Assembly: GCA_050084515.1 (NCBI GenBank)
Contig: CM114271.1
Location: 13,330,001-13,394,000, forward strand
Origin: Blasia pusilla
Lineage: Eukaryota
Reading direction: 5' to 3'
Length of the DNA stretch: 64,000 nucleotides
Both the position numbers and the translations under genes were made by a program. Of this stretch, positions 1 to 43,689 are shown piece after piece (the stretch's first letter is position 1; each line of letters opens with the position of its first letter). A model generated the notes under the pieces. It ran no database searches and was not told where the DNA came from. It saw only the letters and a program-made list of their open reading frames with translations.

Positions 1-359
1 GTAGTAATTGTGTCAAGCGTCGTTTCTCACCTCCCGTAAGCTTGGGCCCAAGTAATGGCTCCCAAGTCTCCTCCTTGGCACACTAGAGGGAGAGGCGATG
101 CCATTGGTCACACTCATAACCCCCTCACAAGATGGTACACCCTTAGCTACACCATCATCTCGAGCAAATAACTCCTCCACTAGCATGAGCAACCAACTCC
201 ACATGCCCACCATTACATCCCATCTACTCCAAGGATGCAAAATACTACTCTCCTCGCTCCCGGCCCGATGCCTCTACCGTCCGGTAGCCATCGAGCTCAT
301 TACAAGGGTGGAAGACCCACAAACATAGTCCGAAGTCGATTTGCTCGCCATACCAAGAC

Positions 360-1330
360 TCAAAATCCAAGTTAAACAATTCAGGTCCATGGCCTGACCC
401 AACACATGACGTCGTGAAGCCTCGAAATAGAAGCAACCATTTGTCACACCAAAGAGCAAATCCCATCGCACGCATTCTCTCATCAGCGTTAGGCTCCACC
501 AATGCCGCACATGAGAATCCCATACAAGCCCGGACCACCTTCCTGTAGGCATGTGACGAGGAAAACTCACAAATGTGGGTAGTGCCATCCTAGGTGGCCC
601 ACACGGTTCACCACCGCCATGGGTGACCGATCAATAACCCTCACCACTTGGGAAAGTTGCCCAAGATTCAAGATACTATCCCTTTGTAAAAGGCGAGGAT
701 CCCTGCCGACCGCATCATATGCTCGACGAGAACCTCCCTAGGCAATAAGTTTGTCCACCACAAGCGTGGGCGATGTGCACGTGAGCCAACTGGCTGCATC
801 CAACAACACCGCTGGTCCAATCCAAGAGCGCACCTCATGAACACTCGCCATCATCCGGGTCCGAGTGTCACCAACAATGGAACATTCTCGAATGTAAGCT
901 AGAGCACGTGCTCGATGAACTGAAGATGTCGTAACACCCGTAACATCTCCCAAAACAATCGAGACCTAGGTCATGTAATCCCTCACCCGACCAAAGACGT
1001 GTATGACACGACATGGCCATCCAGCAATCACCAAATCCACAGGACCAATTCTCTCAAGGTCCTGCGCCCAACAATGCAATGTGTGATGGTAAAGCACGCT
1101 GGTACCCACGAATAGCGATGGCGGAAACAACTCGGGATATCTCCGCATCAATCGACCAATATGTCGGGATGAGACTCTCTCGGGCCGTCTCATCTCGCTC
1201 CTCATACACGATATCTCCAAGACAGAATACCTGCAACACTGCTGACCAAACCAAGTGCTAATCCCACCAAAGAGATCTAACACACAAATGCCCTCCCCGG
1301 ATCTTTGCCATACAATGGGTGTAGTATCCA
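360..1330 (-). pseudogene. C5-cytosine DNA methyltransferase domain within E1 pol (frameshifted)
   Basis: Motifs occur in canonical order: I VLDLFGGI (~1260-1285), IV DLVIAGWPC (~1010-1040), VI YI.ENV (~880-900), VIII GSRAHRPRLWWTN (~750-790), IX EPNADERMRAMGF (~460-500), X RRHVLGQAMDL (~380-415). Confidence 0.9.
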
Positions 1331-1649
1331 AAGGGGATAACCTAAGCGGGCGAGGAAGTAGGAGTCCGCCGTGGGGCCTCCTCTTCCTTGTGAGGTATAA
1401 CGACCTCACACCAAGCCTCTGCACTAGGCAATCGGCCTCTGCCGTAGTGCACCGCCTGAACTCCAAAGTGGCACATCCAACGATGAGGATGCCTTTGCTG
1501 CAAAAATAGGGACCTCCTCTTCCTCCTCATGCGCAGGAGAATCCATAGAAACATTACCCTCCAAAAGTCTCTGGCCAAGTGACTACTCCACTAAAACCGA
1601 CCCACAGATGCTAACACTTTGTTGGGAAGACCCTCCTAGTCAAGCCCGA

Positions 1650-4100
1650 GAAATAAATCTCACAGAACTTGGCTCATACGTCCATCCCGGATCGCCAACC
1701 TGGTCTATAAGACGCTGTCTCGACCCAGTAATCCATCTGAAAACCCATCGGGTACAATCATCGCTCCTCCAACTAGTACATCATACGACTCGGTGATGTG
1801 ACTACCATGCAGAATACTCCCAACCGGGAGCTATCGGTCGCATGATCTGGTCTCAACTGTCAGAAAACTTCTCCCGTGTCATGAATTGAGACCTATCATT
1901 TGCTCCTCCAAGTGATGTTTGAATCTGGAATGGGCAAGGCTCAAGCTCGACCTCCGAATACCCAAACCAATACATGCCGCCTTTCCCAACATCAAAGGTG
2001 GGCACCGAGTCTAACAAGACTCTATCTGGTCTATACACTGTCTGAGGACTCACCAATCGGAAGATCCCACTCCGGTTGTCCAACATACATACACCAGGTG
2101 TAAGCCTCTCACGATCAATGGTGGCCGGGCCGAAATGCATCCATCTTCGCCATTTCGCCGCTAAAGTAGCACTGGTACTCAATGCTACTCCTGACATAGA
2201 GGGTCGCTCCACCGCAACACCCTCATCCACCTCAGCACGTGTAGCAGTAACACCCCCACGTTCACACAACGTGGCCGCTAATTGAAATACAGGAGCTAAG
2301 TCAACTCCTAAAGCCATCAGCTCGTGGCCGAAAACAATGGGGATCCCAACACTGAAGTTGCCATCCGCAATACTGCATTGGATGTTGCATCCGTGTCTAC
2401 TACACGCGATGTAGATGCCTCATTCCCCACTGTCGGCTCAATAGGCTGCGTAGGAACCATGGATGGAGTCCTAAGCACCTCAGACAACAAGAATGACTGG
2501 GGAAGCCTAGCCTGCCTCCCAGCCTCACCCCTCTGTGGGTCCAACTCCACAGTAGCACCACGTGGCTCTGACGCTCGAGTGGCTCCTCTCGAAACTGCAG
2601 CTGATGCCTCAACTTTGTCTTTGCACTCGCCATATAAGAGAGATCATCCCTCCATAAGAGGTGGAAGCCCCTGCTCCCGAACTGATCTATCTTTGGATAC
2701 CGACCATAGTAGCCAACTCTGCTCCAATGCTCAATCTGGGCGACCATAGCGACTCTGTCAGAGTGGTAGGGGTAGCCACCGTAGGCTCTCCAACCACCTG
2801 GTCCACCTCTACCACCCCTACCACCTCTACCACCTCGGCCTCTTGAGCTACTTCACCACGGCCACGGCCTGATCTCAACTCGGATGGAGATCAAAGCAAC
2901 GCTCTCGAGGATGACCTAGTCTCCATAATGATCACACTGAGTTGGGACCGATCGAGGCCCATCCTCCAAAGTCCGTCTCCCATCCTCTTGGGGACAAAAC
3001 TTCCTAACATGATCACCTCCACATGTCCAACATGATCGATCCTTCTTTGCGGGGCAGCAAATGAAGGCAATGGTCTTGCACAAATGTCCCTCTAGGACTT
3101 GACGAGGTCGCGTGTACCCCACGACTCCCACTACTACTACCACCACCACCACTACTACGATCTTTGTGAGGTGGGCGGTGAACACGGTGAAGTAGTAGTT
3201 GTATCCCCCTCTTGAATGCGGATGTCACCACTCTCTCCTTCACCATGTTAAGCTCAATCTTCTCGAGATAGAGCAAACACATGGGTCAATGTGGGTGAAT
3301 CATCACTCATAAGAGTAGCATCACGCACCCTACTGGCGCAAATCTCGTCCAAGATCCCATACCTAAAAGCGGACTGCGCCGATCCTCAATCACACCCTGG
3401 TAATGAAATCAGCGCCGATACGCGTGTATGCCTCACGAAGACTCTCACCAGTCTTTCGCTCAAAGTCTGAAGATTCCTCAACTTCTCCGTCTTCACTCCT
3501 TAATAGTTCTTCTTCAACCTCTTGAAGAACTCGCAACAAGGGCTAAACGATGGTGGGGCACTAGTACCTCCACTAGTACCCCCACTAGTACCTCCACGGT
3601 ACCCCCACTCCGGCTCGACTCGTACCACTCAGCGTCGGCCGGGGTGGCATAGTAGGAGCACTACTACCAATACCACCATGGGTGATAGACACATAGCCTG
3701 GAGACCAATATTGTCTCCATGCCTCAATCTCAACAACATGGTCCTTCCTAAACTCATGGTAATCATCCATGGGTGGTCCTTCCAAGTCTTTGAAACAACC
3801 CCTTCCAAGCCAAGAAGGGTGTAAACAACGTGCGTTCGCAACATCTGCATATCACACCACGTATCAAACTCCTGCATGAAGTCCTCCAACTCAATGGTAC
3901 CCACTTTGCACCGAGTATCGTCGTGGGCCCTTCATGGCCCCATATCCACCGTCCATGTCCCAAATCAATGGAGCGCAACACTCGATAACAACGTAGAAGA
4001 CTCGGTGTTTGGAACACCTCGTCCTCCTCTTCATCAACCGTCGGAAGTGGAAAAGGTAGCCGATACCTAAATCCACTCCGTGTGAAACCACCATTGTCCC
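1650..4100 (-). pseudogene. E1 gag (capsid-like region plus CCHC knuckles) and aspartic protease, degenerate
   Basis: Peptides ELEDFMQEFDTWCD, EGPPMDDYHEF, CWTCGGDH and CPFQIQTSLGG align with E3 peptides (ELHDFIVGIRSWCD, EGAPMDDYHEF, CPFRIQTSLGG). Confidence 0.8.
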
Positions 4101-5676
4101 GCACCACGGTCCCCAACCAGACCACCCGACTGACTCCGTGATGACCAACGCCGATGCCGCACCACCACCAAATTACCAAGTGACGTCGATGTCGCTATAC
4201 TATTCTAACTCTACTAGCTATGGGTGTAGGCAACCTAACTTGTCATCACCACAAGAAGTCTCCCACAATCTACTCGTCATCCCTCCGGCCTCACTACCGG
4301 TAGCACATGGGAGTAACACTACTCGGGAAATCAGCGTCAACCCTAACAATGGCGCGCAAGCAAGAAGCACGATGGAGGGGATCCAAACACAGGAAATCCA
4401 ACAACAACCCTCCAATCGCAAATGGAAATCAAGGTAACACAATCCACCAAACTTGGTGCCCTCGAATCCACAAAACCCACCACACAATTCTAACGCAATA
4501 GCTACTCCGCCGAATGGTCGATGACGTGCTAGTTTAACGCGCAAAGACTGAAAAATATCACTGTATGGAGAGGCTACACCGTACTATGCGCTAGAGGTAC
4601 ATCAACCAGAAACCTGAGATGCATAAAGCGCCTAACACATCTCCGAACAAAGACCAAATGAGCTGTGATGCAGACACTTTGGCATAGTTAAGAACTCGGC
4701 GATTAAGCGTCCTCCAGGCAGAATAGCCCAAAGATGGGTGACCAGTTATGCAAAACTCAAATCCCAAATCCTGCAAAAATTGCCTCACGCCCAAGCAAGC
4801 AAGCTTGCTTGCTTGCTCCTTGCTCCTTACTCCGCCTCTCACGCCCACTCGCCCCGAGCTACCACGAGTTGCCTCGAAGCCTCGAAGCCTCGAAGCCTCG
4901 AAACGCCGAGAAATGCTCGAGACATGCCCCTATCGCCCCGTTCGCCATGGAGAGAGGTCCAACCAGGGCGCCCCCAACGGGATAGGCGTCTCCAAAAATG
5001 AACGAGTCACCAACCAACCAGCCCCTCCGATCCGATGTCCACCATAGCCAGACCTTGAGCTAGTCCGCGAAATTTCGATCAGAAATTACTTCACAAATGT
5101 GTGACCGAAATCAAATCTGTTTCGATCAGAATTTAATTGACCACCATAGCTATCTCCCCACAAAAACTCAGCTACAACCGAGCTCCGTACTCCGAGCTAA
5201 AAATCAGACAAACTTGCTGTCCATACACCTCTAGAACCGCAAAACCGACAAGCGCTCCGCCAAGTTTCATGCACGAGAAAATCCATAACGCTCCACGCAC
5301 TCGAGCAGATAGCTTCACATGAGATCACAATACAAGTAGCAATAGGAACCTCTCACCCGATCTGGATGAACTTCAACAGAGCTTCCGACTCCAAGCTCTC
5401 CACATCGTAAAACCGTCGAACACGACGAATCTTCAATGCTTGATAACTTCCAACTCCTTGACAAAATCCGGCGATCTACTGTAGCGTTGGAAAGCTCTCA
5501 GCAAGGCGCTTCTTTTCCAACCAACACAAGACCAGATTCACACCTCCAACATAGGCCACAAGCCACGAACATCCACGGCCGAGTACACATCGCCCTAACA
5601 GATCCTCTTGATCTACAATCGAAGCTACCATCGATCTCACGTCGGTTCTTTGAGTGAAATCCGTGAAAGACCTCTT

Positions 5677-6000
5677 TGTCATAAAACACGTTTACAATCA
5701 CATACAATCGAGCCAAACCCACTCCACGATGGGAGAATCTAGGTCGAAGCTTATGGAAACACCATAGCCAAGAGCTCTACTCACTACCAAGGCTAACTCC
5801 CAACGCAAAGGCTCAACTCAAAGAATGATCGTTCTTTGAGGGCAAGCCACCTTATATCCTCCAACCTAAGAGCGGGCCCCTCTTTGGGAAAGTCACCCCA
5901 AGTGAGTAACCCCAACCCTATGTATGGAACCGCATCTCTACCAAGCCACTACGGTCCTACATAAGGAATGGCCTCTACCAGCACACCATACTCTACGACA
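5677..6000 (-). repeat. Putative 5' terminal repeat/LTR of E1 (family III)
   Basis: Bounded by imperfect inverted ends TGTCATA...TACGACA. The minus strand has a TATA-like GATATAAGG and the GAGTGGGTTTGG motif shared with family II repeats. The partner repeat is outside the window. Confidence 0.55.
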
Positions 6001-6018: not shown

Positions 6019-6150
6019 CATGGTTCTACTCGTGGTGCAACCACTATGCTAGTCTATGATGGGTGTTCGAGAGGGTGGCATATGGCATGTCTGACGCCAT
6101 CTCTCACTAGGATTCCTCAGGGACGATGGATGTGCCCCAAATGTACATAA
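6019..6150 (+). pseudogene. PHD zinc-finger remnant at the 3' end of a retroelement ORF
   Basis: Translates as HGSTRGATTMLV(Y)DGCSRGWHMACLTPSLTRIPQGRWMCPKCT*, the C-terminal part of the C4HC3 PHD consensus. One Cys appears mutated (TGT>TAT). It lies just upstream of the family II 3' terminal repeats. Confidence 0.85.
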
Positions 6151-6340: not shown

Positions 6341-7141
<801 letters not shown>

Positions 7142-16557: not shown

Positions 16558-17165
16558 GGGAGGACAAGGGGATGGAGCAATATGGGGGGATTTAGGGTGG
16601 GGAGGTGTTTAGTGGGGAGTTCATTCATGAGTATCCTTAAAGCCAGTAAATGTCATGTGTCAAAGGTAATATTTCATTTGGTTTCCCATCGGATCACCTT
16701 GGGGCAGCCAAGTTATGATGTTTTAGGATATTGGGATGTCCTTATGAGTACATGGGAGACACAACCGCTCTATGTCTTATGGAAATTGCAGTTCCAACAA
16801 TTGATTCTATTAATTCCCTTACGAGGCTATATCCTCACTAGGTTGTTGACTTTCCAAATTTCGTATATGATTTCCTTCATTAGGTGCCTCTTTGCCTCAA
16901 CTTGTTCCTTTGTGCATGGATGCTCTAAGGATTTCCAGGACTTGCTTCCATAGGTTTGTCAAGCATGGTGCATGAACACCTTCTTGATTACTTTTTTTTC
17001 CCTAGGATTCCTAGATCCAGCGACTTCTTTAATTTTATCCAAGTTGTGTTTTAATTAGCTGTTGGGAAGCTTCTAGTGATAGTGGCCCAGCTTTTTGGGG
17101 GCGGGGCGACTCTTGAGGATGTCCAAGTTATATGGCTCGTAAGACTAAGTTGTGACCAAATCACT

Positions 17166-20100
17166 TGTCACATCTTAGTTTGCCGATAGGTAGAGTTCTA
17201 CCATGTCAATGGCATAGCGAGTCAATGGACTGTTGGGTGTAGCTTAGTCTTGAGATGTTAGTTGAAGTTGACGTTAGGTCCGTTATGTCGGGAACGTTGT
17301 TTCAAGCGATTTTCCTCCTTTTTTTTTTTTTTGCTGGTGATCTGTTGAGCAAATCAAGGGCCAACTAATAACCTGTGCACCCAAGTTACCGATGGGTTGG
17401 ATAATTTTAGGGGAAGAGCCCTTCCCCTAAAATTGGCTCTTCCCAAGGCTATATAAGGGAGAGAGTTCCTTCCTGTACCGACATATGTTACCCAGGAGGG
17501 ACCACGGTTGAATTTTTGGATGTGTGGTGGGCCACATAGGCAGAAGGACTACCCAGAGCATGGTAGAGGGCCTAGGGTGCCTCTGAGTGTTCAAGAGCCA
17601 CCTAAGATGGCCCCACCACAGTTGCAATATGATCATTGTTACCGATATGGTCATACTAGGGTTAGGTGTTTTGATCTTTGTCAAGAGCTACGTCCAGAGG
17701 AAGGCGGAGGGCCTAGGGTGAGAGAGTTGGTGGAGATCGAGGAGTCGATGATTGTGGTGATAGATTTCTACCACCAGTCATAGGAGATGGAGGACGTGCA
17801 CCTGATGCAGCGCTCCTCACTCGTATCGATCAGTTGTAGCACAAGATTTTTGCCATGACAATGATGCAGCTAGAGACACGCAACAAGCCGAGAGTGGCTA
17901 GTGTGGCTCTAGCCTCCACGACGTATCAGGATACGGAGGAAGATTATACGGGCTTGAGGTTTATGTGCAGTGTGGCTCACGGAGAGGTTGTTGCAATAGT
18001 GCCTCAGGGTGCGACGAGAGTGACAGAGCCAATGAGAGAAGGTGTTGAGATTGACCCACTGGAGGGAACCAATGGGCGACAAGCCAAAGTTTATGAGTCA
18101 TTTAAGTTGTTAGAGGCACTTCACACGCCGTCAATGGTGCCTCGATGTTCAGTAATGTCCACAGGTGAAGCAAGTGTGTCGACGTCATGAGGAGTTGGTG
18201 AGATGACTCCTATGCTGGCTTGGGGAGAGCCAGTGTCGACCATGTTGTTGGAGGTGGCCACTAGGGTGAGCCAGGCTCTGTTGTTTTCTGCCATGGAGTT
18301 GGCGATGATGGGAGTTGGACGAGCGGAGCTATTATGACTGGCCGCCATGTTGTGTGAGCATGGAGAGATGATTGCCTCTAGTTTGGAGGTGGTTGTTGAG
18401 GAGGTGGTGGACATACCCTCGCAGCACGTGCTCAAGACGTCCTCCACTAAGTCATGGTATGCTGCGACAGGGAAGTTGGTAGATATGCCAACTAGGCTAA
18501 CAATAGAGCGAGCCATGATCACGCCAAGTGTAGTGTTGTTGGATAACTAAGCTGAAGTGTTTTTCTTGGTTAGTCCCACAAGTATGGTGTACCATCCGTA
18601 GCGGATCCTACTTGATTCACGAGAGCAACCCTTTTATTGGGGAAGGCGAAGTGCTTGGTGTTGGGATTACGAAAAGGTGACATTGAGTGTTATCCCTTTC
18701 AGATACATACCTCTATTAGGGATGTATCATCCACGTAGTACATGACTCAACATAAGTTATTGGTTGGACTCTAGCCAAAGCATGAGTTGGATAGTGCAAT
18801 GATGCGCACTCGGGCGATTAAGTCAACAGTAGAGTCATATGATTTGTTGGTAGGGAGTACGGTGTTGTACCCCCTTGGTTTCATTCTGGATTTTTGGGAG
18901 GAGACAGTTTCTTATCAGCCAAGGTGGCAATTAGGTGATAGATGGATGAGCCATCTACCGATGCAATTTGCACGGTGCACTGGTGGTCGATCACGTGAGG
19001 ATACAATGACCACGTTAGCAGCATTCATAGGTGGTGTTAGCTGAATAGGAGAGTTTTTGGAGAGGAGCACACATGTGGAGGAAATTTCCGTAGCGGATAG
19101 TCCCATGGAGAGACATGTCTGGGTGGGTGTCTCTTCTCATGGTGTGGAGATTTTCTTACCATTGTTGTGTAAGAGCGAGGAGTAAAGACGAGCTTGTGAG
19201 GCAAGCATGGAGCCATGCTGGTGTCTTGGAGCATACAAAGTCAGGTGACGATCGTGCTCTTAAATTGGAGACTTCATATCTTCGGGTACCACATGTGTTA
19301 TGTGGTAGTGTTTGGAGCAGGGTACAAAAGTGTTAGATCTCTTCGAAGGAATCAACACATATTTATTTGCAGTGATACGGGGATCGGATGACACCACCAA
19401 TGGTGCTAGATGTGTATAGAATAGTAGATTATGTTAGGTAGATATGTGTGTGCTATCTGGAGTTAGGGGAGAAATTGTGGGGTCTCGGTGTATATGCATG
19501 AGTTTATTTGGTTTATGGATGGATCGACCGATATGTTGGAAAGATCAGTGTTGTGTGGTGTGTAGATGCGACCAACCACGTGGATTGTGTAGCGATGTGT
19601 TATCATGTGTATACGCATGACAATTGTTACATCTTAGTTTACCGTCAAGTAGAGTTCTACCGCATCGATAGCTTAGCGAGTCAACGGACTATTTGGTGTA
19701 GTTTTGTCTTGAGATGTTATTTGAAGTTTACGTTAGGTCCGTTGTGTTGGGAACGTTGTTTCAGGAAATTTCCCTATTTTTGGTCTTTGTCAATCGGTGA
19801 CCTGTTGAGCAACTCAGGACTAGTCGGTAACCTATGCACGTACGTTATTGATGGGTTGACTATTTCTAGGGGAAGAAACTTTTGGCTCTTCCCAAGGCTA
19901 TATAAGGGAGAAATATGGCTTTTCCAAGATATCTTTCTAATATTGGGTCGTTGGATCATCTCTCTTGCTTGTGTGTGAGGTAGCAACTAGGGTGCTAGCA
20001 TCCAGATTCCCTCATAGCGGAGGGTGGACGAGGGTTGATATGCTGATGTAGATTCAAGAGTGGAGTTTTAGACCGGATGAGCCAATTTTTACTCTAATTT

Positions 20101-20239
20101 TTGTTGTGGGGTCTTGGTGTATATGCGTGTGTTCATTTCGTTTATGGATGGATCAACCTGTGTGTTGGGAAGATTGGTGTTGTGTTGTGTAGATGTGACC
20201 AGCGATGTGGATTGTGTAGCAATGTGTATACGCACGACA
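17166..20239 (+). mobile_element. E2: internally deleted DNMT-retrotransposon (family I) with both termini. Order: partial A1, gag knuckles, protease, DNMT motif I, B1 (19475-19622), AT, A2 (19625-20103), B2 (20104-20239)
   Basis: Termini are TGTCACATC and GCACGACA, flanked by the 4-bp TSD CACT (17162-17165 and 20240-20243). Peptides: WMCGGPHRQKD, HCYRYGHTRVRC, RILLDSREQP, ESYDLLVGSTVLYPLGF, LDLFEGINT. Confidence 0.92.
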
Positions 20240-21968: not shown

Positions 21969-24900
21969 TTAGGTTATACGAACAAACAGTGGGGAATTGC
22001 ATTTTTTTGCGAAGTATACGAAACAAGCAGCAAGCAGCACGATAATGGCGACGACTAGGAACACAATTCCAGCAATGATGCCCCCAGAAGCCTTTCTCTT
22101 GCTGTTTGGGGCGGGGCCGTAATATGCCTGGCACCAAGCACCATAGCATGTTAGATGTCTACAGGCGAGCAAGCTGAGAATTGCTTGAGGTGCTTCGTAA
22201 TATCCACAAGCTCGTGCGAGAGAGGATATGCTCGGCACCCATGGTTTGATTAAGACCATAAGCTTTTCTCTGCTCTTTCATCTTTGAAGACATGAGAAGA
22301 CACTAATGCAGAAACACTCATCTCTGTGACATTTTACTGAAAGGAATCGAGGCCAGCAAGATGACTCACCTGCCCAGGCGCAGGGTAGCTTCCTGGTCTT
22401 TCCAAAGGCTGCAAGGCTAGGAAGGTCTCATTCGCAATCCGTCCTTTGAACTGTGAGAAAACGTAAGTGCAAATGGTGAGCACGCAATCTTGTAATCCAA
22501 AAGCCCTCCAACCGCCAAAATCACTGATGTCCTGAATGTGCTTGGCTGGAACATACTGATGTACTGAACTTAGACGACCAGAAGTGAAAAGCGATGGCAT
22601 TATGGACGGATAGAAATGAGGTTTGAGCGTCACGTAAGTTATCTTCCCATAGACTCTTACCTCCCAAGAATGTACCGTCATAGACACCAGATCATAGACT
22701 GGAGGCTGAGCCGTTACACTTCGTGCACCAGTTTCCGGATCAAACTCAACGATCCCGGTGCACCCATCATATCTCACTCGTTGTTTCCCACTCGCATTAA
22801 AGGCCTTGTAAATATTCAGTCTTGTTACTTCAAGTCCTGCTGCTCTCAGGTCATCGATTATTTCATAGAAAGCGATGACAGCATCAAATAAATAAGGCAC
22901 GTACGACCGAGACTTATTGGCCCCTGTCGCTGGTAGACCCGGATATTTGGTTGCGAATTCCTGCCAATGGCTATAAAACTCGCTGCATCGGGAGCTAGAT
23001 GAGAAGTCCCCACCTATCAGCAAACAAATGTGCAGAAGTAATCAGCTACGTTCATGTTCGTCACAATACATCGTCAATCTGAAATCAGCATCAAGGAACA
23101 GTCAGCCCAGCCACAGAAAGTAAATTCCAGAGAGCTTATCAAACACGCATCATATGCACTCAGAAGGGAGGCTCACCGTAAGGAGCCAACCCTATCTCTC
23201 CTTCAAGCGCGTTCACCAACTCTGGACCTGTGAAGTTATACTGATGGTGTAAGAAAGATTCGTAAGAAACTCACGAGAACACTCACACTTCTCGTTTAAA
23301 GAAGGCCTGCCTTCCATGAATGACACGCTGCAGTTAGATGTTCTATGTATATGCGCATTTCTCAGCTAGAATATGTTGTACATTTCTCAGCTCCCTTACC
23401 CAAGCTAGTTTCTCTTCAAATCACCGGGGAGTGACCAAGAGCTTGTGATATAATCAAGAAACATGTCACGGCTCTCGACAATTTGCACAGAAAAGATAGC
23501 CATCTGTCTGTTGCTAGAGCTCCCTGTTGATCAAGGTTCATGTTTGAGCCAGTAGACAAATCTTTAGGGTTGATATGGTAAAGAAGCACGTCATGGCCCT
23601 CAACAATTCGCGAACAAAAGAAAGCTATCTGTCTGAAGCTAGACTTCCTTGTTGATCAAAGTTTATGTTTAAGCCACCGGACAAATCCTAGGATTCTTCA
23701 TTCAAAATCTTACCCACGTCAAGAGGATCGAACGCCGTAGCTCCATCCGTACCAAAATACCACCAAGGATACCTGGTCTTTTCCTGAAATGTTATGGTAA
23801 CTTGTGGCTCAGAGATTACAAAGAGAAACAAACTTGAACTGAAGAATCTAGGAAATCGCAATGCATTTATTCCCGCTGTATCACATCAAGTTGAAATCTC
23901 ATGCTCAAGGACAGGTGCAGATGGATCCGATTGAAGAATCCACAACACAAGTAAAGGTTACCAACCATCTGATAAGCAATTTTCCATATGTCTCGCGCAA
24001 CTGTAGGCTGCACAACAAGAATGACGAAGTCGGTTGGCTGGAGAGAATTCAGTAACGATTTAAGTTGATCTCTGTTCACTGTCGCATTATAGCCTGGCTC
24101 CAGTAGAAACATTCGGACTCCTCCCACCGTCTGCAAGAAAAATGGGCTATTTCAGATCCGAAATTCTCCGTTGAGAAAACGCTAAAATAAGACCTGCATT
24201 TCTTCTCTTCGGATTCACAACGTGGGAATTAGAAACGCCTTCTGAGTTCCATCACCGTAGCACCTATTTCTTGGATGCCAACAAACACTCTTTCTGCTCT
24301 GCTGGACTAATAGTGTGTGAACGGACGACTCTTATAGAAGTAGGTAAGAGACACAGTTTCTTAAATTGCTAGAACACTCTTTTGGTTTCGTGGCATAATA
24401 TTAATTAGTGAAGCTTTGTAGGCCAATTCTAGCTCCTGATCTAGGCGTCCAACGAGCAACCACGCTCCCACCCATCATGCTGAAAGCCTAAGAGATTGAT
24501 TTCATGGTTGATTATTGCGTAAATTCCCATAAACGCCATTGTCTACATTTAGAAGAGCTACAATTTTTGTTTCCCGGAGGATAAGGTAGGGGGCAAGAAA
24601 CCAAAATCTTCTCCTGTCTCCATGTATCTAACACCGTGACCTGTAAGTAAGCTTACAGGTCTCCAATATGGACACCCGTAGCCGCACTTTTATTCTCCCC
24701 TCCATAAAGCTCGTCCGTGATGGAAAGTGGAAAGTAGATTGAGACTAAAATTTACGACATTATTTGCCTGTTGCAGTGGATCTAGAGCGTCTCGCAAGCA
24801 GTACGAGCAAGTAAATTTACCATATTGATCTCGTTCGCCAAGCTGTTGCTGTAATAGTCACTGGTGTATAGTAGTGTCGCATTGGTTATGCTTAATCTCT

Positions 24901-30993: not shown

Positions 30994-32264
30994 TCTATAT
31001 AGTGGGCGACCCCACAACTACAGCAACATTAAGACGAATTTCAATGGAAGAGAAAAAAACATTTATTATATTATATCTTATAATTTACCTAATTAATATT
31101 TAATGGGTGATTTTAAATTAAAAATTTTTAAAAATGAATTAAAATTTTCTTAAATCATATTTAATGAAAAAAGAAAATGAATTTTAATGGAAAAGAAGAA
31201 ATGTTTGAATTTGAACGGAAATATTTAAAATATTGGGATATCATTTAAATTTTATTTGATAAGTGGAGTTATTTAGAAGAGAAATTTGATTATTATTTTC
31301 AGATTTAAGAAAGAAATTAAAATTTTGAAACATTTTTTTTATTTTTAAATAACCAAATTATTGATATGTCACGTCTTTTAGGATATATTGGAAAAATTTA
31401 GTATAGAATCTTCATGTGTAGCGGAAGACACCCTTAGGAGGTCAATTATGATTTGTTGAGGCCACGAATATGAGAGAGCAGATTTCCCTTTCGTTTCGCC
31501 TCATTTGGAATCATATATAAAAACTTACTATTTTGGTAAGTTCCTATTTTGAATATATTTAACTTTCCATTTTGGGAATTGGTCTTTGATCCGCTACATC
31601 ATATCAAGAGCCAAGGACATGACCTGCGAACATAGGTTATCGTGGAGAGATTTTGGGAGAGAGGAGGGGGTATACCTCCAAGAGAGAGAACTTGAGAGTT
31701 CTCTCTCAAGTTCTCTCAAGAACTTCTTGAACCTCTTGGCATGAGGCGGAAGAGTTATGGTCTTCTTTGCCTTTTATATGAGAGAGAGAGATTTGTGTGC
31801 ACCATAGAGAGATTGTGTGAGATCTACTTGATTTTATTGGAGATATTTTGGTACCTCTCGTCTCGATGTTTGGATGTCATGAGTTAACATGGGATCGTGA
31901 GTGTTTGTGTGTGTTCGGTGACAGCGATGTATGTTGTGTGGCGATGTGTATATGCACGGCGGATATTTCAAAAGGAAAATGAATCTGAATGGAAAAGGGA
32001 AATTGATTAATTAATTAAAATTAACTAAGAATATAATTAGTCAATATTATTTTGGTGGGAAAAATAGAATGGGAAGAATAGGTATTGTTCAAAATTTCAT
32101 GGAGGAGTGAAATTAATTAGGGAAGTTGAGTTTTATTTAAAAGTTAAATTCTTTTATTCTTGTAAGATTTAAAATTATATGAATTATAACAAATTTTGAA
32201 ATAAAAAATATTTCTGAATTATTAAAAAGTCATTTTTGTACGAAAGCACAAGCATGCTAACTAG
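30994..32264 (+). mobile_element. AT-rich non-autonomous Helitron, interrupted by a solo retroelement repeat
   Basis: Starts A|TCTATATAG and ends with a weak hairpin then GCATGCTAACTAG|T. The same 3' end occurs at 47004 and 53265. Confidence 0.65.
31367..31961 (+). mobile_element. Solo A+B terminal repeat of family II DNMT-retrotransposon
   Basis: Runs TGTCACGTCT...GCACGGCG (degenerate GCACGACA) with the 4-bp TSD GATA. The related Helitron copy at ~46672-46710 shows an empty site with a single GATA. Confidence 0.9.
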
Positions 32265-34766: not shown

Positions 34767-35111
34767 GGTCACATCTTAGTTTGCTGACAAGTAGGGTTCT
34801 ACCACGTTGATTGCATAGAGGGAGAGAAATTTTCTTGGGTGTAACTTCGTCCTGAGACGCCAGATGAGTTTGGAGACACATCCATTGCGTCAGGAATATT
34901 ATTTTTCACAATTTCCCTTTTTTTCTTTGTCAACCAAGTGATTCGTTGACGGAGTCAACGGTCACCTGGTAACCTATTCACGCAAGTTACTGTTTGGAGG
35001 TTGTTTTGGGGGGAAGAACCTTTTGGCTCTTCCCAAGACTATAAGAGAGGGAGAGATGGCTTTCCCAAGCCATCTTTCTCATATTGGGCCTCAAGAGCAC
35101 CTCTCTTGCTT
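34767..35111 (+). repeat. Family I terminal-repeat (A) fragment
   Basis: GTCACATCTTAGTTTG...TTGGCTCTTCCCAAG.CTATA...CTCTCTTGCTT aligns with 17166 and 19625. Confidence 0.85.
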
Positions 35112-37850
35112 TTGGTATAACTAAAAGCAAGATTGCTACGGCTAGCAGAAGTAACCATGGACAAAGTTGGGAAGATGGAGGGAGAGAGAGCATGCCTTCA
35201 ATAAGGAGGAGCCATTATGGCTTGAGGAGGTTGAGTGTGGAGTTCGGGGCAAGGTCCGGGTTTTTTTTTCTCGGGAACCATTGAGTTCTCTTCATTTGTT
35301 TTTCCTAGGACCTGATTTTTTAAAATTATAACCGAAAATACTAGAAGATAGGTTTTAAAGTAGGCCGTAAATTTCTAATAATTAAAAATTTTTATAGTGG
35401 TTTTCTGAATATTTTATTATTTACACGACACATTTCCTATTCATTTGAAAGAAGCCTAGCCAATGTTTGGCCGATTCTAAATTTAACCAACTAAAAAAAT
35501 TTCCCGCCTGCTTTGGATAAATTGGATTTATGATATCTTTTCATGACCCTTTGAGAATCATTCAACTTCTCTTGCAAAGTTACAAGACCACACTACCTCT
35601 TTGAAAATCTTGTCCCGTCTTTTAGGATAGATCGGTGAGATCAAGTAGAGCGCCTTTGTGAGTAGTGGAGTACAGGCTCAGTAGGTTGAGGATGACTTGT
35701 TGAGGCCCCGGGAAACCCAAGAGAGAGCAGACTTCCCCTTGGTTTCGGCTCATTTAGAGCCATATTGAGGAACTTACTAATTTAGGTAAGTACCATTTTG
35801 AATATATGATTGACTTTCTATTTTTGGTATGTGTCCTTGACCTCCTACATCAGGTCAAGAGCCAAGGAGGTGACTTGGGAGCATAGGTTACCATGGAGAG
35901 AGCTTGGGAGAGGGGAGGGATATACCTCAAGGAGAGAGAGCTTGAGAGCTCATTCTCTCTTTGTTGAACCTCTTGGTATGAGGCGGCGGAGGAGCTATGG
36001 TCTTGCTTGCCTTCTGTGTGTAGCCCAAGCCTCTCATTAGGAGAGTGGGTTTGGTTTGACATTGAGAGAGACATGTGAGAGTGCACACATGTGAGAACTA
36101 TGGTGTTGTGAGAGAGATTAGATCATATTTTACAAAGAGAGAATGAGTGAGTGAGAGAACTTCGTGGGGGAGCTCCCTGGTTGCTCGATGTTTGGTGCAG
36201 CTTGGGGGACCATGTTCCCCGCTTCATGGCTCATGGGAGTGCTCACCAAAGCAAGAGCCGTGCCAGTTTGCTATTTTGATTTGCTGATTTTTTGTATAGG
36301 AGATTGGCACTCGGATGCGCTGCTCAATTTTCGATAGGAATTGAGTATGGGGGCGGATTTCTCCATGCCGATGCTCTCGAGAGCACCATGTAGCTTGCTG
36401 ATTTGTGTTCTCACGGGTTATACAATTTTTTTGGGAGAAATCAGTGCGGAAGTGCTGCCAAATTTTGTGTAGGAGAAAGAGACATTGGGCTTTACGACAC
36501 TCCCTGTCAGTTTTTACTGGAATGTTCGATTCAAAATATATTTTGATGTTGTTGTAGATCGTGAAGCTGTGCAGGCTATGCAAAAAATGGTGCACAATTT
36601 GAATTATGAGCAAAAAGTTATGTTCAATCTTGCAAAATTGCCATTGCAAGCCAATTTTAGGGTTAAATTGTTCAAATCCTAAATCAGCTGTCGCGTCGGC
36701 GGTGGCTGTTGCTGTCATATTCACCGTCAACGGTCAACAATCACCGCTAATGATCCGCCGTCACCATCAATGGTCAACCGTCACCGTCAATGGTCCACCG
36801 ACCACCGTCCGCCACTGCCACCGCCTAGTGTTGCTCAGAGCCGCGTTCGGTTGTTGTCCACCCTTTGGTTGCCATTATCGCCATTACGGAGTGGAGGGTC
36901 TTCCACGACCACCGTTGATTCTCTGACTTGCTCCGCCACCACGTACTTTGGTTTGGCCGCCACTGTCATCGCAATTTTGTCATCAACCAGTGATGGCAGG
37001 TGACCTCGGGTTATGGTGTTTGAGTTTTCATTTCATGCTGCTATGTTGTGATTCGTAGTCGCTCGATGACGATCGAGTACCGTGCCGTGATACCGTAGCC
37101 GCAACGCGCCGCCGATTGCCACGCCGTGTCGCTCATGGCCGCACTGCACCACACCGTCTTGATCGCACAGCCGCTCCTTCACTAAGGAGCAGAGCGTATG
37201 AATTTTTGATTGAGGAGGGTATGCCGCCGAGTGCCGCACTCCATTCCCAAGTGTCCTGCCGTTTGTAGCTATTCCGTGCTGCCAATGCCGCACTGGACCG
37301 CTGGACTTGCACCGCACATCGAGGAGGTTTGACCAGCGTCAGTACGAGAGGAGTACGACTTGCTCATTGGAGGAGTTGTCTTCACGACTGAGTTGGGATC
37401 GAGATTTGCAGGTACCGAGGAGCGACATCGACATTATTGTGAGGTTATCCATTCTGGTCTCTTACCCTGCACGTGTGAGGGATTTTTGGGTATTGGGAAG
37501 TTATTTGGGATATTGGGTTTTGTGCTTATGCTGAGAGCATCAATGATGTATAGGTTTAGGGGTCATAGACCTATGTGGGATGTCCACAGTTGAGGATGGT
37601 TTGTCCATGAGATGATAGATCAATTGATTTGCAGCACCACGGATCATGTATGGGTTTAGGGGACATAGACCTGTGTGGGATGTCTAGAGTTGAGGATGGT
37701 TTGTGGATGAGACGACAGATCAGTTGATTTGCCGCACAACACACGTCTCAATGAGAGAGTGTAGATTGAGTGCCGCATGTTTAGTTTTATTGATTGAGGG
37801 ATTACTTGCGAGATTGAGAGTGATCGTGTGAGAGGGGCACGAGGGCCATC

Positions 37851-39830
37851 ATGGCATCCTTTCGGGATTTTGAGAGGCGAGGCAGTGGACCTGAGAGTAG
37901 CTCTAGAGGGTTTACCCGTAGTGGTGCGAGGTTTCGAGGGTCTCCACGTGAGAGACCACCTCGATCTCCTTCTATATCGTCTTCTCACAAGGGGGAGCAT
38001 GTAGAGGAGTGTGTTAGTGATCCACCGTATACATTGAGTGGTCCTACCAGTTGGGCGTACGAGATGGACGACCGGGATAGAGAACCGCGTCAGATTTTCG
38101 GGTGTTGTAGGCATTATAGAACTACATGACTTCATTGTGGGGATTAGGAGTTGGTGTGACTCACAGCAGGCTAGGAACTCTAGAGAGTTCAACCCATTTA
38201 CAACATGGAACGATATGTTCCAGCATTTAGAGGGGGCGCCCATGGACGATTACCATGAGTTCTCCCATAGATATGCCCAGAAGATTGACGCATGGCGACT
38301 CTATTATGATTCACACTATGTGTCATGGACGGAGCCGTTCCTAAATGAGGAGGAGGAGTCAGGAGAGGCTACTTCCTCTTCCACTAGTGATATTTTAGGA
38401 GGGGTCACTCGCATTGGAGTAGTTGCAACATCTAGTCGGGTTCGTCCCAGTTTCAACCCCGTGGTTGAGTTCTTTGTTGAGTTAAGGGCGAGCTACCAGG
38501 GGGTACGGACGAAGAATTTGCGGAGCATCCACAACTTCCAGAGGCGCCCGGGTGAGAGTTTGCGTGAGGCTTACACTCGCTTGCGCCGGTTGATCAACGT
38601 TACTCAAGGGGTGACAGAGGCTCAAGCTATCCAGTCATGGTATGCGATGTTGGATCGGACCATGCGGACATGAGTGCGGGAGGGCGTGATTCTTAAGAAC
38701 ACCTCCCCTATGTTGAGAGATGTTTTTAGGACCGCCAAGAATATTGAGCGCAACATGGCGGAGGAGAGAGTAGCCACCATGGGTTTTGGGCGAGAGTAGT
38801 CACGATTGTCTGTACCACCTGTGCAGCAACGTGGACTCCGCGATAGGTTGACTGTGGCACCACGAGCTCAAGGAGGATACCGGGATGTTGTGCCACAGAG
38901 ACCTGCGACTTCATATGCGGCTCAGTAGCAGCCACCTACAATTATTTGTTGGTTATGTGGTGGAGCCCATCATCAGCGCGATTGCAATCGTCAAGGTCAT
39001 GGACGTGTGCCTCAACATGGTGGAGGAGATGGTCTTACACCAGGAGGTTATCAATGTGACTATTGTTAGAGATATGGTCACACACGCGCTAGGTGTTTCA
39101 ATTTACATCCTGAGTTACGTCCGGATCGAGGGCGAGAGAGGGCACCAGAGTGAGTAGCCGGTCCGTGTGGGCCTAGAGATTGTGCACCAGGTGGTCTTGT
39201 TGGGGGACGAGGAGTTGGAGTTGCCTGTCAGGGTGGTGGAGCTGCCCATGGAGGAGGTAGAGTCCCACCACCTAGACGCATTGAGGGAGACGCCGGGCGT
39301 GAGGCTGGGATGGCTGCTCAGATACAACAACTACAGGAGGAGGTTGCCGCTTTGGCATTGAGGTTACCCGATGCCGGATCCGTGGCATTGACATCATATG
39401 GAGCAGCCAGAGATATGGAGGATCCTGATAGAGCTTTTAGTCCGCATCGCGTCTTGTTGGATTCAGGAGCGCAACCCTTGATGTTGGGGAAAGCGTCATT
39501 CAGAGGATTGGGCTTGACGAGAGCCGATGTGGAGCGTTGTCCATTCCGGATACAGACATCCTTGGGTGGAGCAATTACCACACAGTATATCACCTGACAG
39601 GATGTCGTGGTGAGGATTCGCCCGGGACATCCTACAGATGAGTCCGTGGTGTGAGCCAAGGGGATAGTGACTGATGTAGAGTCCTACGACATCTTGGTTG
39701 GTGGAGCAGTGTTATACTCGATGGGATTTTCCCTGGATTACTGGGAGGAGTCAGCGTCCTACAGACCAGGATGGAAGTCACGTGATGGGCGCCTTAGCTC
39801 ATTACCTGTTCGATTCACAGGTGCAATGAT
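37851..39830 (+). pseudogene. E3 gag (two CCHC knuckles) and aspartic protease
   Basis: FQRRPGESLREAYTRLRRLI (retrotransposon-gag-like), ICWLCGGAHHQRDC, CDYC*RYGHTRARC, RVLLDSGAQPLMLG, ESYDILVGG. In-frame stops are present. Confidence 0.85.
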
Positions 39831-40119
39831 TGAGTGACGGCGAGGAGAGATGACGACCTTAGTAGCATTTAGCAGTGCCATCACTTGGCCTAGTGATTTG
39901 ATTGAGGGACATGTCCATACAGAGGATACTCCCGTTCCTGAAATTTCTATGCAGAGGAGTGTCATGGTAGCTGCATCAGTATGTGGAGGCGAGGTGCCAC
40001 TTTGGGGCTCAACTGAGGAGCTTCGACCCTTAGCCACTGAGCATGTGCAGACCATGTGGAGCGAGATATTTGCACTAGAGTGTGACGGGTTAGAGGAACC
40101 CAAGGTAGGCAAGAGTGCT

Positions 40120-40770
40120 GCTATGACCCCTTTGGACACCATCCTGATTGTGTGGTGCATCCTAGAGGAGGGTATTCGGGTGTTGGATCTCTTTGGAGGG
40201 ATCAACACTAGGTTAGTTGCTATTTTGCACGCTGGAGTGCGCGTGCAGGAGTACGTGTATGTGGAGATTGATGATGTTGCGAGGTGCACTTCACTTCATC
40301 ATGTGACGCATTTATACCTCCGTTTTCCCGAATTTTTGTCTGCGTCCGCCATTCAGGGTTACCAGAGTTCCCTACCGAGGGACATTTCATTGTTGGGGGC
40401 GCAGGACTTAGAGCGGGTATGGACCATAGACTTGGTCATTGCTGGTTGACTGTGTCAGTGCCAATCGAGTGTTGGACAAGGTAGCGGGTTAGCTGACACT
40501 CGATCTAGGTTATTTTGGGAGATAATGCGGATCTTGCGACATTTACAGGAGCATCAGCCTCGTTCTCCAGCATCATTTTGGAGAATGTGTCAATTTTGGG
40601 CAATTCGAGGTCTCGAGTGGTGACGAGTGCACATCAGGTGCGGGCATGGATAGGCTTGGCAATGTTGTTAGATGCGGCGAGTGTAGGTTCTAGATCACAC
40701 CGCCCCCATCTTTGGTGGACCAACTTGGTACCACATGAGGTGTTGCGGAGGGCTTGTGCAGGGTCACGTC
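40120..40770 (+). pseudogene. E3 C5-cytosine DNA methyltransferase domain (inactivated, truncated after motif VIII)
   Basis: IRVLDLFGGI (~40174-40203), YVYVEID, DLVIAG*LCQ (equivalent to GWPCQ, ~40430-40458), ILENV (~40575), GSRSHRPHLWWTN (~40686). Confidence 0.9.
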
Positions 40771-43689
40771 CATAAGGACGTGAGAGAGCTACTTGGCAAG
40801 AGACAAGAGTCTCGTGCCCCAACGTTGACGGACGGAGTAGACGCCGGGCTAGGGTGAGTTTCGGGGTAAAACAAGGGAGAGGTAGCCGCTTAGGGCAGCG
40901 TGCGACAAGGAGGATGGGGCCGCATTGAGGAGTGAGTGTGGACGTGACAGTGCAGTCAAGTCAGGTGTTAGGCTCAAGCGTCCGAACCAGGTTGGGTAGG
41001 AGTTGGACGAGGTGAGGCCGGTTACCTGGTTGAGCTGTCACTATGTGGTGCGCTTGCAAGGTATGTGGTAAGTGAATAAGTGGGGTCACTAAGGAGTAGG
41101 GTTTGACTAAGGAGATGTGTTTGACGAGTCAAGATTTTTAGGGGAGATGTGTTTTATGATCGTCATCACTTGGCGCTTCATTTGGGATTGTTGGTCGTAA
41201 TGTGATTTACTAGTGCTTTGTCGATTGGGGACGAGATGGGTGCTCCGCATCGACAGGTTGCGACAAAGTGGTAGAGGTGAAGACACATGTGCCAATGTTG
41301 ACGGGTAGTCTACATTCTCTAAGATGAGGTTTGACATGCTGCTTGAGGAGACTGTCGTTCCGAGGAGGTTGCCGCACCACATGGATCAGTCGGTGTTGAC
41401 TATCAAGTAGAGTGATGGCGTGCGTGTTCAAGTTACCCATTCGAGTCCCTTTTCCCGCAGTTATCATCATGTCATTGAGGATGTTGGGTAGCAGGTAGAA
41501 CTTAGGCTAGACGGGTGTGGTGATATGATTTTGAAGGATAATTCTTGTCTCACCATTTTGAAGGATAATTCTTGTCTTATTATCCTTTTTCATTATTTTC
41601 CCTAAATAGTAATCGTTCTTCCCTCTAAAGTGAACCTGAAAAATAAAAGTTAAACTATATTTTTTATGAGGTTTTGAAAGAATAAAATATAATTAAAAAA
41701 AATAGAATGAACATGCATTTATATTTTGGAACATTTCTTGAAGATTATAATTTAAAAAAATAGAATAGAAGATAATTATTTCTTCCTTCATATAAAATTT
41801 AAAATTAAAAAAAATGAAAAAAAGAGAAAAAAGACTTGGAAAATTTCATGAATATTAAAATATTTTATAAGAATTAAATTTATTTCAAAAAAATTTATGT
41901 ACTTATTAAAACCTCATATTTTTACATTTATGGAATCCTTTTTTTTCTTTACTTTTGGCTTAAAAATCTTGGAAGAAGAAACTGACTATTAAGCCAAAAG
42001 TAAAGAAAAAAGTAACCAAAACTATGGCTTTGGTTTATTTTTTCTTTTTTGAGTCTTTTCTTAAAAAAAGATTTCCAACGAAAACTACGGTCTAAATTGA
42101 AATGAAACAACGTACTTGGATAAACAATACTGCACTCCAATTTACACGGATCACATGGTGAACGTACCGCACAAATAGCAAGTGGGTATAGGAATCCGCG
42201 CCTCATGATACTTTTAGCTTTAAAAATGGACACTTTCTGAAAGAGTCTTGGAAGATATCATGCATTGCAAGATTGCAACGTGAAGGCGGAGAAAGCTTAA
42301 AACGTCCGGCAGCCATAGGAGTCCGTCAGGTCGGTCTATCTATATATATATATAAAATTATAATAATAAAAATATAGTTTAATGGGTGGTCGGTCAAAGG
42401 CGAGCCCATGACTTTGCTCTAAAATCTTCGGAACAACCGAGGTTCCGCGAGAAGGATGCCTATTCCGATCGAGTCAATTGAGAGAGATGGACGGTATGAC
42501 GCTCACGAGTCGCGTCGCATTTCTAGCCCATGTGACGGGTAAACTGGCACTGGGCAATGAGTCACTCCGGCAGAAATCGGCCGCGCGCATGATTGGTGGG
42601 CACATGGGTACGGTGTGTGTCGTCAAAGGTCAATTCCACGACCAAAGGTGGCCCCGTCCGTGGGCCAAAGAAATGCTTCCTTTCTTCCTTGCTTCTGTCA
42701 GTAGCGGCGTTCAACTCCTCTGCAATTACAACCGATCATACCCTCTCATAAACTCCAAAGTAATCTTCTGAAGTAACGCGAACTCTATCACTTTTCCGCC
42801 GCTCTAAGCAAGGCTCGGGTAGATACTTCAGACGCACCGGGAATGGCCGACAGGAGGCGATTCCGGAACAGGAAATTGTCGGAATTTCTCGGAACTTTCA
42901 AAAATTTCTTCTTCTTTTTCAAAAATTTCTTCTTCTTTTTCTGCCGAATCTCCAAGAAGGCCGTCACTTGGAGATCCGGCGAAGGCTTCTGTCAGCAGAA
43001 AAAAACTTAACCTTGAGGACGAAAATTGAACTGCGACGATTACACTCTCGTGACTCTCCTATACTCGGAAGTGATACAAAGCCCTAAAAGTGAGCTAAAT
43101 CGCTTTGGTCCATTTCGCTCTCTTTTTCCTTGCTGGGAGGGGAATAATCCAAAGTTGGTACGCACGATTAACTCACATTCATGTGCTCGAACGAGTCGAG
43201 TCTCGACTCTCGAGCGATTCGCACCCAAATAGCGATGGATGCTGCTGGGAAGCCTGGAAGTCCCCGGTATCCTGAACAAGCGCTGGGATCTGAACTCCCC
43301 TGAGGTTTTCTCCCTTTTTGCAATGGAATCTAACAACTGCAACTTAAAGGTTAAAATAAAGTTAAAGTCACCAAGTTAAGCACACCCGAAAACCAGATGT
43401 GGGAGGGAATTCATCTTCAAACTAAGTCAAGACCCAAACTCGTGTGTATCCGGTTGGAAAAAGTCTCAGGAATCTGAACGTAGGAATTGGCAGAACTCGA
43501 GTTCTTTTAAGAATCAGAAAGGAAAACATGGGAAAATTTTCCAGAGAAAATTGAGGGTTTCTTTCGAGACATTTCAGAAAACACTTTGTGACGGCCCCCT
43601 ACGAGCACTATTCATTTAATGTTGTCTCCATCTAACATATCCTCTCATATCTGCCCTCTACACACGTGTTTGATAATTAATCTTCCCCC

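Follow-up and report, generated by a model that had tools for sequence, protein, structure and literature searches.

The window analyzed here, a stretch of 64,000 nt from Blasia pusilla (GenBank assembly GCA_050084515.1, contig CM114271.1, positions 13,330,001–13,394,000 of the forward strand), contains four sequences, E1 to E4, that we interpret as decayed insertions of a Ty3/gypsy-type long terminal repeat (LTR) retrotransposon family carrying a DNA methyltransferase (DNMT) domain; we assign this reading a probability of roughly 0.85. E1 lies on the minus strand, where gag, then the protease, and then a C5-cytosine methyltransferase domain at 1567–161 follow each other within positions 1–3956, and it is colinear by tblastn with residues 1–1247 of a Marchantia protein of 1,278 aa (P0017; related proteins carry the prefix P and related loci the prefix L) along window positions 3956 to 202. 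The order gag–protease–DNMT is found again on the plus strand in E3 (38092–40775), whose DNA is only about 67% similar to that of E1. E2 (around 19330) and E4 (63736–64000) keep only pieces of the element, gag and protease being absent upstream of E4. The features of the element family in the window, with open reading frames abbreviated as ORFs and reverse transcriptase as RT, are as follows.

5645–5840, minus strand: 5' LTR remnant of E1 (blastn to the 5' LTRs of related loci, e.g., L065 6511–6319 at 74%)
4147–5644, minus strand: leader of E1, from LTR to gag (exceeds the approximately 960 nt of related loci; window 3650–4146 corresponds to 7961–7471 of the loci and the LTR piece to about 6511)
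2900–3956, minus strand: decayed gag of E1 with CCHC zinc knuckle (tblastn of P0017 1–338 on 3956–2922, in several frames and with stops)
1568–2650, minus strand: decayed aspartic protease and linker of E1 (P0017 436–830 on 2616–1439; P0042 protease-region relatives; ORF 1853–2419)
111–1567, minus strand: DNMT3-like region of E1, comprising an N-terminal extension and motifs I–X (P0002 8–482 on 1567–161, E value 1e-54; at least four frame changes and many stops)
102–110, minus strand: ORF1/ORF2 junction of E1 (TGA at 110–108, one codon, ATG at 104–102)
1–101, minus strand: start of ORF2 of E1, before the RT, cut by the window start (matches the post-stop stretch of the loci, PMAS...; Sphagnum fallax P0022 aligns to base 2)
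6034–6144, plus strand: PHD-finger remnant, representing the ORF2 C-terminus of a further copy (matched by the C-terminal part of P0041 in tblastn, 37 aa at 54%, E value 5e-9)
17472–19380, plus strand: E2, partial gag, protease, linker, and about 20 first DNMT residues (P0017 290–899, three frames, 12 stops)
38092–39144, plus strand: gag of E3 (P0017 13–362, 46%, E value 2e-83, four stops)
39400–39810, plus strand: protease of E3, RVLLDSGAQ (P0041 668–791 and P0042 from 788 on 39433–39810; ORF 39154–39597)
39880–40775, plus strand: DNMT motifs I to VIII of E3, then truncated (P0002 2–295, 50–61% identity, E value 4.5e-77)
63736–64000, plus strand: E4, DNMT fragment from the interval separating motifs VIII and IX, truncated at the window end (P0002 290–350, 51%, E value 1e-11; P0017 1050–1129)

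Judged by sequence similarity, the resemblance to DNMTs in the window is far above chance, the Sphagnum DNMT protein P0002 matching E1, E3, and E4 by tblastn with E values of 1e-54, 4.5e-77, and 1e-11, respectively. In E1 we identified motif I (LFGGIS, 1274–1257), motif IV (GWPCR, 1022–1008), and motif VIII (AHRPR, 778–764) on the minus strand, and the ORF list adds a decayed motif VI (YIRECS, around 896–879), motif IX (RMALPTFVSFP, around 591–559), motif X (EPNADERMRAMGF, around 496–458), and GQAMD around 400, within GQAMDLNCLTW. One minus-strand frame, 966–1526, contains both VLDLFGGIS (motif I) and AGWPC (motif IV), and AHRPRLWWTN is located on another minus-strand piece. Farther upstream in the element, the gag ORF at 2916–3224 contains CWTCGGDHVRKFCP, and the protease reads LLDSV where LLDSG is expected. 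E3 has LFGGIN (40189–40206), ILENV (40575–40589), and SHRPH before it ends at 40775, and in E2 motif I (VLDLFEGIN, around 19330) is the last point of similarity. The motif order is unpermuted, with the whole set in E1, the motifs up to VIII in E3, and the same order in relatives. A first-pass annotation of this DNA had described motifs I, IV, VI, VIII, IX, and X in order after gag and protease in E1, and this is what we find, on the minus strand and with motif VI decayed. The recurrence of the protease–DNMT order that it proposed holds for E3 (motifs I–VIII) and for E2 only in part (motif I, followed by truncation), and the DNMT segment that it placed in E4 matched residues 290–350 of P0002 (E value 1e-11). 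Its pre-RT-like segment turned out to be the first 35 or so codons of ORF2 (104–1), and nowhere does the window show the DNMT beside an RT. Of the three diverged terminal-repeat families that it invoked, our analysis shows no more than an LTR remnant for E1 and a repeat pair 77% alike around E2.

The identity of the domain is carried by relatives outside the window, as is the interpretation as a whole, which in the first-pass annotation was right in kind and overstated in novelty: it rests on these relatives and not on the dead, RT-less copies of the window. A search with the E3 frame led to P0001 (E value 1.6e-41), in whose 90% cluster Sphagnum jensenii and S. troendelagicum are represented by unnamed proteins. 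A Pfam check, which the first-pass annotation had suggested for a consensus, came out positive for relatives and negative for the window pieces: with the DNA_methylase model (PF00145; cut-off 22 bits), P0001, P0002, P0006, and P0014 reached 29–32 bits and P0042 reached 54. Closeness to DNMT3 was judged by profile and fold searches, the domain tree described below having been built without reference DNMT families. Against PDB sequences, P0002 alone matched DNMT3A at 2e-9, and a profile of 24 domains matched DNMT3A at 2e-25, DNMT3B/C at about 1e-22, DRM at 4e-16, M.HhaI at 7e-9, and DNMT2 at 5e-6. An AlphaFold model had a mean predicted local distance difference test (pLDDT) score of 75.9, with the core (residues 100–430) mostly above 90, and in a Foldseek search of this model against the PDB the top matches were all DNMT3A/B/C, with E values of about 1e-17 and target-normalized template-modeling (TM) scores of about 0.8. 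The domain has the fold and the motif order of DNMT3A/B, whereas plant DRM is circularly permuted. In contrast to DNMT3A/B, the domain sits inside a retrotransposon polyprotein, shares about 21–24% identity with human DNMT3 in structural alignment, and lacks companion domains, Pfam having identified neither PWWP nor ADD in P0002, P0017, P0041, and P0042. On the evidence of sequence and predicted structure, the domain is a DNMT3-like catalytic domain only, with DNMT3A/B as its nearest solved structures.

Seven positions are invariant in the 24 domains: C195 and Q196 (PCQ), E238 (ENV), H277 and R280 (motif VIII), N285, and E378. The Marchantia proteins spanning those sites likewise retain the motifs FGG, PCQ, ENV, AHRxR, and ERE, bar single-residue changes in P0026–P0028. 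This conservation bears on the possibility that the domain has ceased to act as a DNA methyltransferase and serves instead as an RNA methyltransferase or as a noncatalytic nucleic-acid-binding module of Gag–protease. A place in ORF1 beside Gag would fit RNA binding, and the only test published for a Dnmt3 carried by a Gypsy element points the same way: the available part of de Mendoza et al. (2018; PMC5890265) describes Dnmt3-type DNMTs in a Gypsy element of Klebsormidium nitens (KnitGypsy-Dnmt3) and reports that this enzyme produced no DNA methylation in yeast. The authors call that test inconclusive because human DNMT3B failed too. A dead module would need no catalytic residues, and the (near-)invariance of the PCQ cysteine, ENV, the AHRxR arginines, and the S-adenosylmethionine (SAM) motif FGG in 24 diverged domains, in Marchantia, and in Sphagnum thus counts against a noncatalytic role. 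We consider loss of the DNA methyltransferase function quite improbable.

Relatives also supply the parts of the element that are absent from the window. Among longer proteins a search gave 42 matches, including 14 from Marchantia polymorpha (60–71% identical), one from Sphagnum fallax, one from Chromochloris, and many unnamed polyproteins. According to Pfam, P0042 consists of CCHC, aspartic protease, DNA_methylase, RVT_1, RNase H, and integrase, and P0041 has the same order with an additional PHD finger and without a CCHC match; in the Marchantia proteins P0026 and P0030 the DNMT is followed by RVT_1 and RNase H. We collected 79 related loci from metagenome contigs, in which the DNMT is 57–92% identical to P0002. 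Among the 45 loci with at least 1,500 nt past the domain, 43 encode RT, RNase H, or integrase after the DNMT on the same strand (41 counted by script plus L029 and L030, in each of which one high-scoring segment pair [HSP] runs from DNMT to integrase), and gag or protease precedes the DNMT in 34 of the 48 loci with enough upstream sequence. Three loci (L005, L065, and L070) have both LTRs, which are direct repeats of about 340 bp, 90–94% alike, bounded by TG...CA, and about 9.1 kb apart; judging from these loci, the whole element is about 9 kb long. The DNA of E1 is about 74% identical to the related loci across 2–4146. These data bear out the proposal of the first-pass annotation that the DNMT is an integral part of the element, collinear between protease and RT (43 of 45 loci and the polyproteins P0041 and P0042), and we are highly confident of the identity and architecture of this DNMT-bearing Gypsy family.

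Fragmentary copies and a window without adjoining RT could also be produced by a host DNMT3 gene or pseudogene lying beside retrotransposon debris, or by a single local capture. Such an origin is incompatible with the gag–protease–DNMT order shared by E1, E3, partly E2, and the Marchantia ORF1 proteins, with RT, RNase H, and integrase following directly within LTRs in 43 of 45 loci, and with the missing companion PWWP/ADD domains. Searching 1.84 billion representative sequences with phmmer, we obtained 2,313 proteins at an E value of 1e-3 or less and 237 at 1e-30 or less, many of them 1,000–3,400 aa long; together with the recurrence of the domain in copies about 67% alike, this agrees with the first-pass view that there was no one-off capture. 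A host pseudogene or one-off capture was rejected as ruled out by the related loci, and we give it hardly any credence.

A stop codon separates the DNMT from the RT. The junction could be aligned in 64 loci, two of which run off the contig, and in 59 of the remaining 62 readable junctions a stop (45 TAG, 14 TAA) lies right after the DNMT tail in the frame common to DNMT and RT. The codon after the stop is CAA in 58 and the third codon is ATG in 58, giving the sequence CAA CCC ATG (e.g., L004 1470–1600). The corresponding site is also where the Sphagnum proteins and the Marchantia ORF1 proteins (1,159–1,278 aa) terminate, about 40 residues past HPWSxWD. Because a conserved stop follows the DNMT tail, we describe the family as ORF1 (gag, protease, DNMT), a stop, and ORF2 (RT, RNase H, integrase). 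A predicted RNA structure starts 9 nt past the stop and extends over about 94 nt with 26 pairs; 96.3% of its cells are paired, compared with 36–57% when the partners are slid, and double-change cells number 27, whereas shuffled data gave 12.7 ± 5.4 and 0 of 500 shuffles came as high. ORF2 of the related loci ends in a PHD finger, C-terminal HSPs of 47–51% identity over about 245 aa being found in at least ten loci, and Pfam detects PHD in P0041, P0053, and P0094, which include algal relatives. In Chromochloris P0053, a G-patch domain follows the DNMT.

To assess copy number and expression in B. pusilla, one genomic and three RNA runs were mapped on window positions 1–6000 at a likeness of at least 90%. 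With roughly one hundredth of the genomic run read, DNA depth reached several hundred at each position, and 23,290 of 32,252 DNA reads were 90–95% alike to the window and therefore derive from many sister copies. All three RNA runs cover the whole of 1–6000 nearly exclusively with the first mate on the plus strand (64 vs. 2.7, 35 vs. 0, and 63 vs. 3 in the first bin), which, assuming the usual stranded libraries, corresponds to minus-strand RNA, that is, the sense strand of the element. The family is thus high-copy and sense-transcribed in this species. At many positions most reads agree in showing a single-base gap in E1, and many of its breaks are therefore private to E1. Within the E1 leader, a joint 4151→4788 that skips 636 nt occurs in 15 RNA reads from the three runs and in none of the DNA run; canonical splice sites were not found at this joint on the minus strand of E1 (GT...TC at best), and it may reflect either an intron in the leader of sister copies that are expressed or an expressed variant carrying a deletion.

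Median pairwise dN/dS among decayed copies, calculated from nonindependent pairs with dS above 0.15, was 0.56 for the DNMT core and 0.36 for RT–RNase H (915 pairs with both), and 0.67–0.84 for protease and linker. The ratio drops with divergence, a pattern that is expected from, and consistent with, constraint in active lineages followed by decay of the insertions. The sense strand has a GC skew of about +0.22, a CpG observed/expected ratio of 0.53–0.70, and an excess of TpG and CpA; the CpG depletion is consistent with methylation of the copies over the long term, whichever enzyme was responsible. The same strand is rich in G and T in 1–4146, 17472–19380, and 38038–40775 of the window and in L016, L031, L065, and L070 (GC skew +0.20 to +0.25, AT skew -0.04 to -0.12), and the skew is near 0 in the remaining window.

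A number of observations speak against the reading of these sequences as a methylase-bearing family and against the functions attached to it. All four window copies are decayed, with HSPs that switch frame and 0–10 stops apiece, and the catalytic motif IV is mutated to PCR in E1 and to *LCQ in E3, where WPCQ is expected and the W codon is a stop. By tblastn, no RT, RNase H, or integrase adjoins any of the four copies within the window. None of 11 window ORF pieces scored at or above a Pfam family cut-off: a first batch of eight had no match at all, the two DNMT pieces and the protease piece of E3 had none, and the gag piece of E3 had a sub-threshold Retrotrans_gag match (18.9 bits against a cut-off of 24.1, E value 0.0018). 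No intact copy is present among the 79 loci, whose longest ORF is 508 aa. Covariation in the junction structure is led by one column (14 A-U, 14 G-C), which may be a single inherited event, and the changes are CpG-decay transitions; the stop and the structure downstream are a possible readthrough or reinitiation signal, readthrough being suggested purely by conservation. The RNA reads represent transcription of the family, neither that of an intact copy nor translation. A dN/dS of 0.56 is only moderate, the values being inflated by post-insertion decay, and host enzymes account equally well for the CpG depletion. To these points the yeast result for KnitGypsy-Dnmt3 can be added.

With these reservations, the following mechanism can be envisaged. 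As seen mostly in relatives, ORF1 encodes Gag (CCHC), an aspartic protease, and a nonpermuted DNMT3-like domain whose catalytic residues are kept in intact relatives, and ORF2, in the same frame as ORF1 and behind the conserved stop, encodes RT, RNase H, integrase, and the C-terminal PHD finger. Translation of ORF2 would depend either on readthrough of the stop or on reinitiation at the ATG two codons on, and the amount of methylase would then resemble that of Gag. This putative active de novo DNA methyltransferase might target the element's own new cDNA or the insertion site and so provide the new copy with a host-like methylation state. Self-methylation of cDNA, an idea also raised by the first-pass annotation, was proposed in the discussion of the 2018 paper, in the part of it available to us (PMC5890265); for the present family we put it forward tentatively, as a putative activity at somewhat less than even odds. 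Alternatively, the methylase may work not on cDNA in the particle but in the nucleus, where the PHD finger linked to the integrase would direct it to chromatin at the insertion site or nearby, and it may there either set a silencing or "stealth" state of the element or disturb host marks. The PHD finger at the end of ORF2 is a histone-tail reader, and DNMT3 enzymes, to which the nearest structures (DNMT3A/B) belong, usually act on chromatin. The DNMT and the PHD finger are in separate ORFs, however, so that they would form a single chain only in the readthrough product, and we regard this chromatin-directed role as rather doubtful.

The DNMT domain occupies two positions in Gypsy polyproteins. 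Among 243 proteins fetched from the phmmer search, 105 have the order RNase H–DNMT–integrase (or part of it), 53 have protease–DNMT–RT, and 85 contain the domain alone. In a FastTree analysis of 147 domains, one branch separates the two orders from each other (support 99; one change; 0 of 500 label shuffles as low); this tree is unrooted, was built with the fastest method, was sampled around P0002, and leaves out domain-alone rows without a host name. Sphagnum and Marchantia form a supported clade within the protease–DNMT–RT group of the FastTree phylogeny. These results could be combined into a broader scenario, in which an old, green-plant-wide Gypsy lineage would possess an "epigenetic kit" of DNMT3-like methylase and PHD reader and the methylase would have moved once between the RNase H–DNMT–integrase and protease–DNMT–RT positions. 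The latter branch would survive in bryophytes, high-copy, transcribed, and with intact ORF1 genes in Marchantia, and the enzyme, made in Gag–protease before a readthrough stop, would supply land-plant methylomes with de novo methylation of transposon origin, at odds with the published view that the move to land saw these elements lost. We consider this scenario speculative and unlikely in its full extent.

Retrotransposon-borne DNMTs have precedents. Besides KnitGypsy-Dnmt3, the available part of the 2018 paper describes them in DIRS and LINE elements of Symbiodinium and reports CG methylation, de novo in yeast, by the DIRS enzymes (PMC5890265). A later paper mentions "streptophytes (Gypsy-DNMT3)" in the part accessible to us (bioRxiv 10.64898/2026.05.21.726589), and another refers to DNMT3 in retrotransposons "as previously reported" in its accessible text (PMC12344493). 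The accessible text of the 2018 paper names neither Marchantia nor Sphagnum (PMC5890265), and full-text literature searches, with subscription journals and supplements outside their scope, retrieved nothing on retrotransposons with a DNMT in Sphagnum, Marchantia, or any other bryophyte. The DNMT3-bearing Gypsy kind is thus known from a streptophyte alga, and what is new is the bryophyte-type family.

Compared by text description, as far as it was available and not by sequence, KnitGypsy-Dnmt3 resembles the present family in having an intronless, nonpermuted Dnmt3-type DNMT within the coding region of a streptophyte Gypsy LTR element, with conserved catalytic residues, signs of purifying selection, and copies that are methylated and decayed. 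By the same description the present family differs in its named relatives (Sphagnum and Marchantia), in the location of the DNMT in an ORF1 of gag–protease–DNMT with a conserved in-frame stop before the RT, and in its C-terminal PHD finger. The repeats may differ as well: DIRS-like repeats (A-coding-B-A-B) are given for the Klebsormidium element (Fig. 4c legend, PMC5890265), whereas a self-comparison of 13 long loci, which are decayed and have short flanks, showed a plain direct LTR pair in three of them and a second set of repeats in none. Klebsormidium proteins were absent from the named matches and from the 21 clusters examined, in searches within 8,000 candidates, and cluster look-ups of 20 further proteins gave Haematococcus and Cymbomonas as the only named members. 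SymbioDIRS-Dnmt3 and SymbioLINE-Dnmt are likewise C5 methyltransferases borne by retrotransposons, those of DIRS being Dnmt3-type, but belong to other classes (DIRS with a tyrosine recombinase, and LINE) in another eukaryotic supergroup, according to the available part of the paper (PMC5890265). The EpiLTRs of Cymbomonas and Euglena are LTR retrotransposons that also unite a DNMT with a chromatin-reader domain; as described in the accessible text, their DNMT is sister to DNMT4 and lies at the 3' end of pol in Cymbomonas, and a Dam-like adenine methylase and a chromodomain are present in both hosts (bioRxiv 10.64898/2026.05.21.726589), whereas the DNMT described here is DNMT3-like, follows the protease, and is accompanied by a PHD finger and not by Dam.

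Several other features of the window deserve description. The PHD remnant at 6034–6144 lies on the strand opposite E1, about 45–190 bp past the E1 LTR remnant, and E1 was probably inserted into an older copy of the family, the remainder of which is beyond the window start (a nested insertion). Rfam gave no matches in the window. A long (CA)n/(GA)n microsatellite occupies 6860–7090. Several dispersed repeat families, unrelated to the DNMT element and 67–79% alike, are located at 17162–17462, 19621–20239, 34768–35114, and 61458–62075; at 6450–6865, 31367–31773, and 35610–36053; and at 43748–44346/49003–48416. One dispersed-repeat pair flanks E2 (17162–17462 and 19621–19911, 77% alike). A long open frame on the minus strand (22334–23041) is ANF_receptor-like according to the ESM Atlas (the ligand-binding region of glutamate-receptor-type proteins) and is probably an exon of a host gene.

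Retrotransposons that carry an enzyme normally used against them are a recent and little-understood discovery, and for the Gypsy type a function has never been demonstrated. A family with a stop between ORF1 and the RT, a PHD finger, and a two-position history of its methylase domain has notable features of its own, and it provides a warning that the "DNMT3" counts of bryophyte genome annotations include transposon copies. It also corrects the published claim, stated in 2019 in the part of the paper available to us, that land plants lack transposons encoding a methylase (PMC6338049). With the family in mosses and liverworts, the question enters genetically tractable land plants, Marchantia having apparently intact gag–protease–DNMT genes and B. 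pusilla having sense transcripts.

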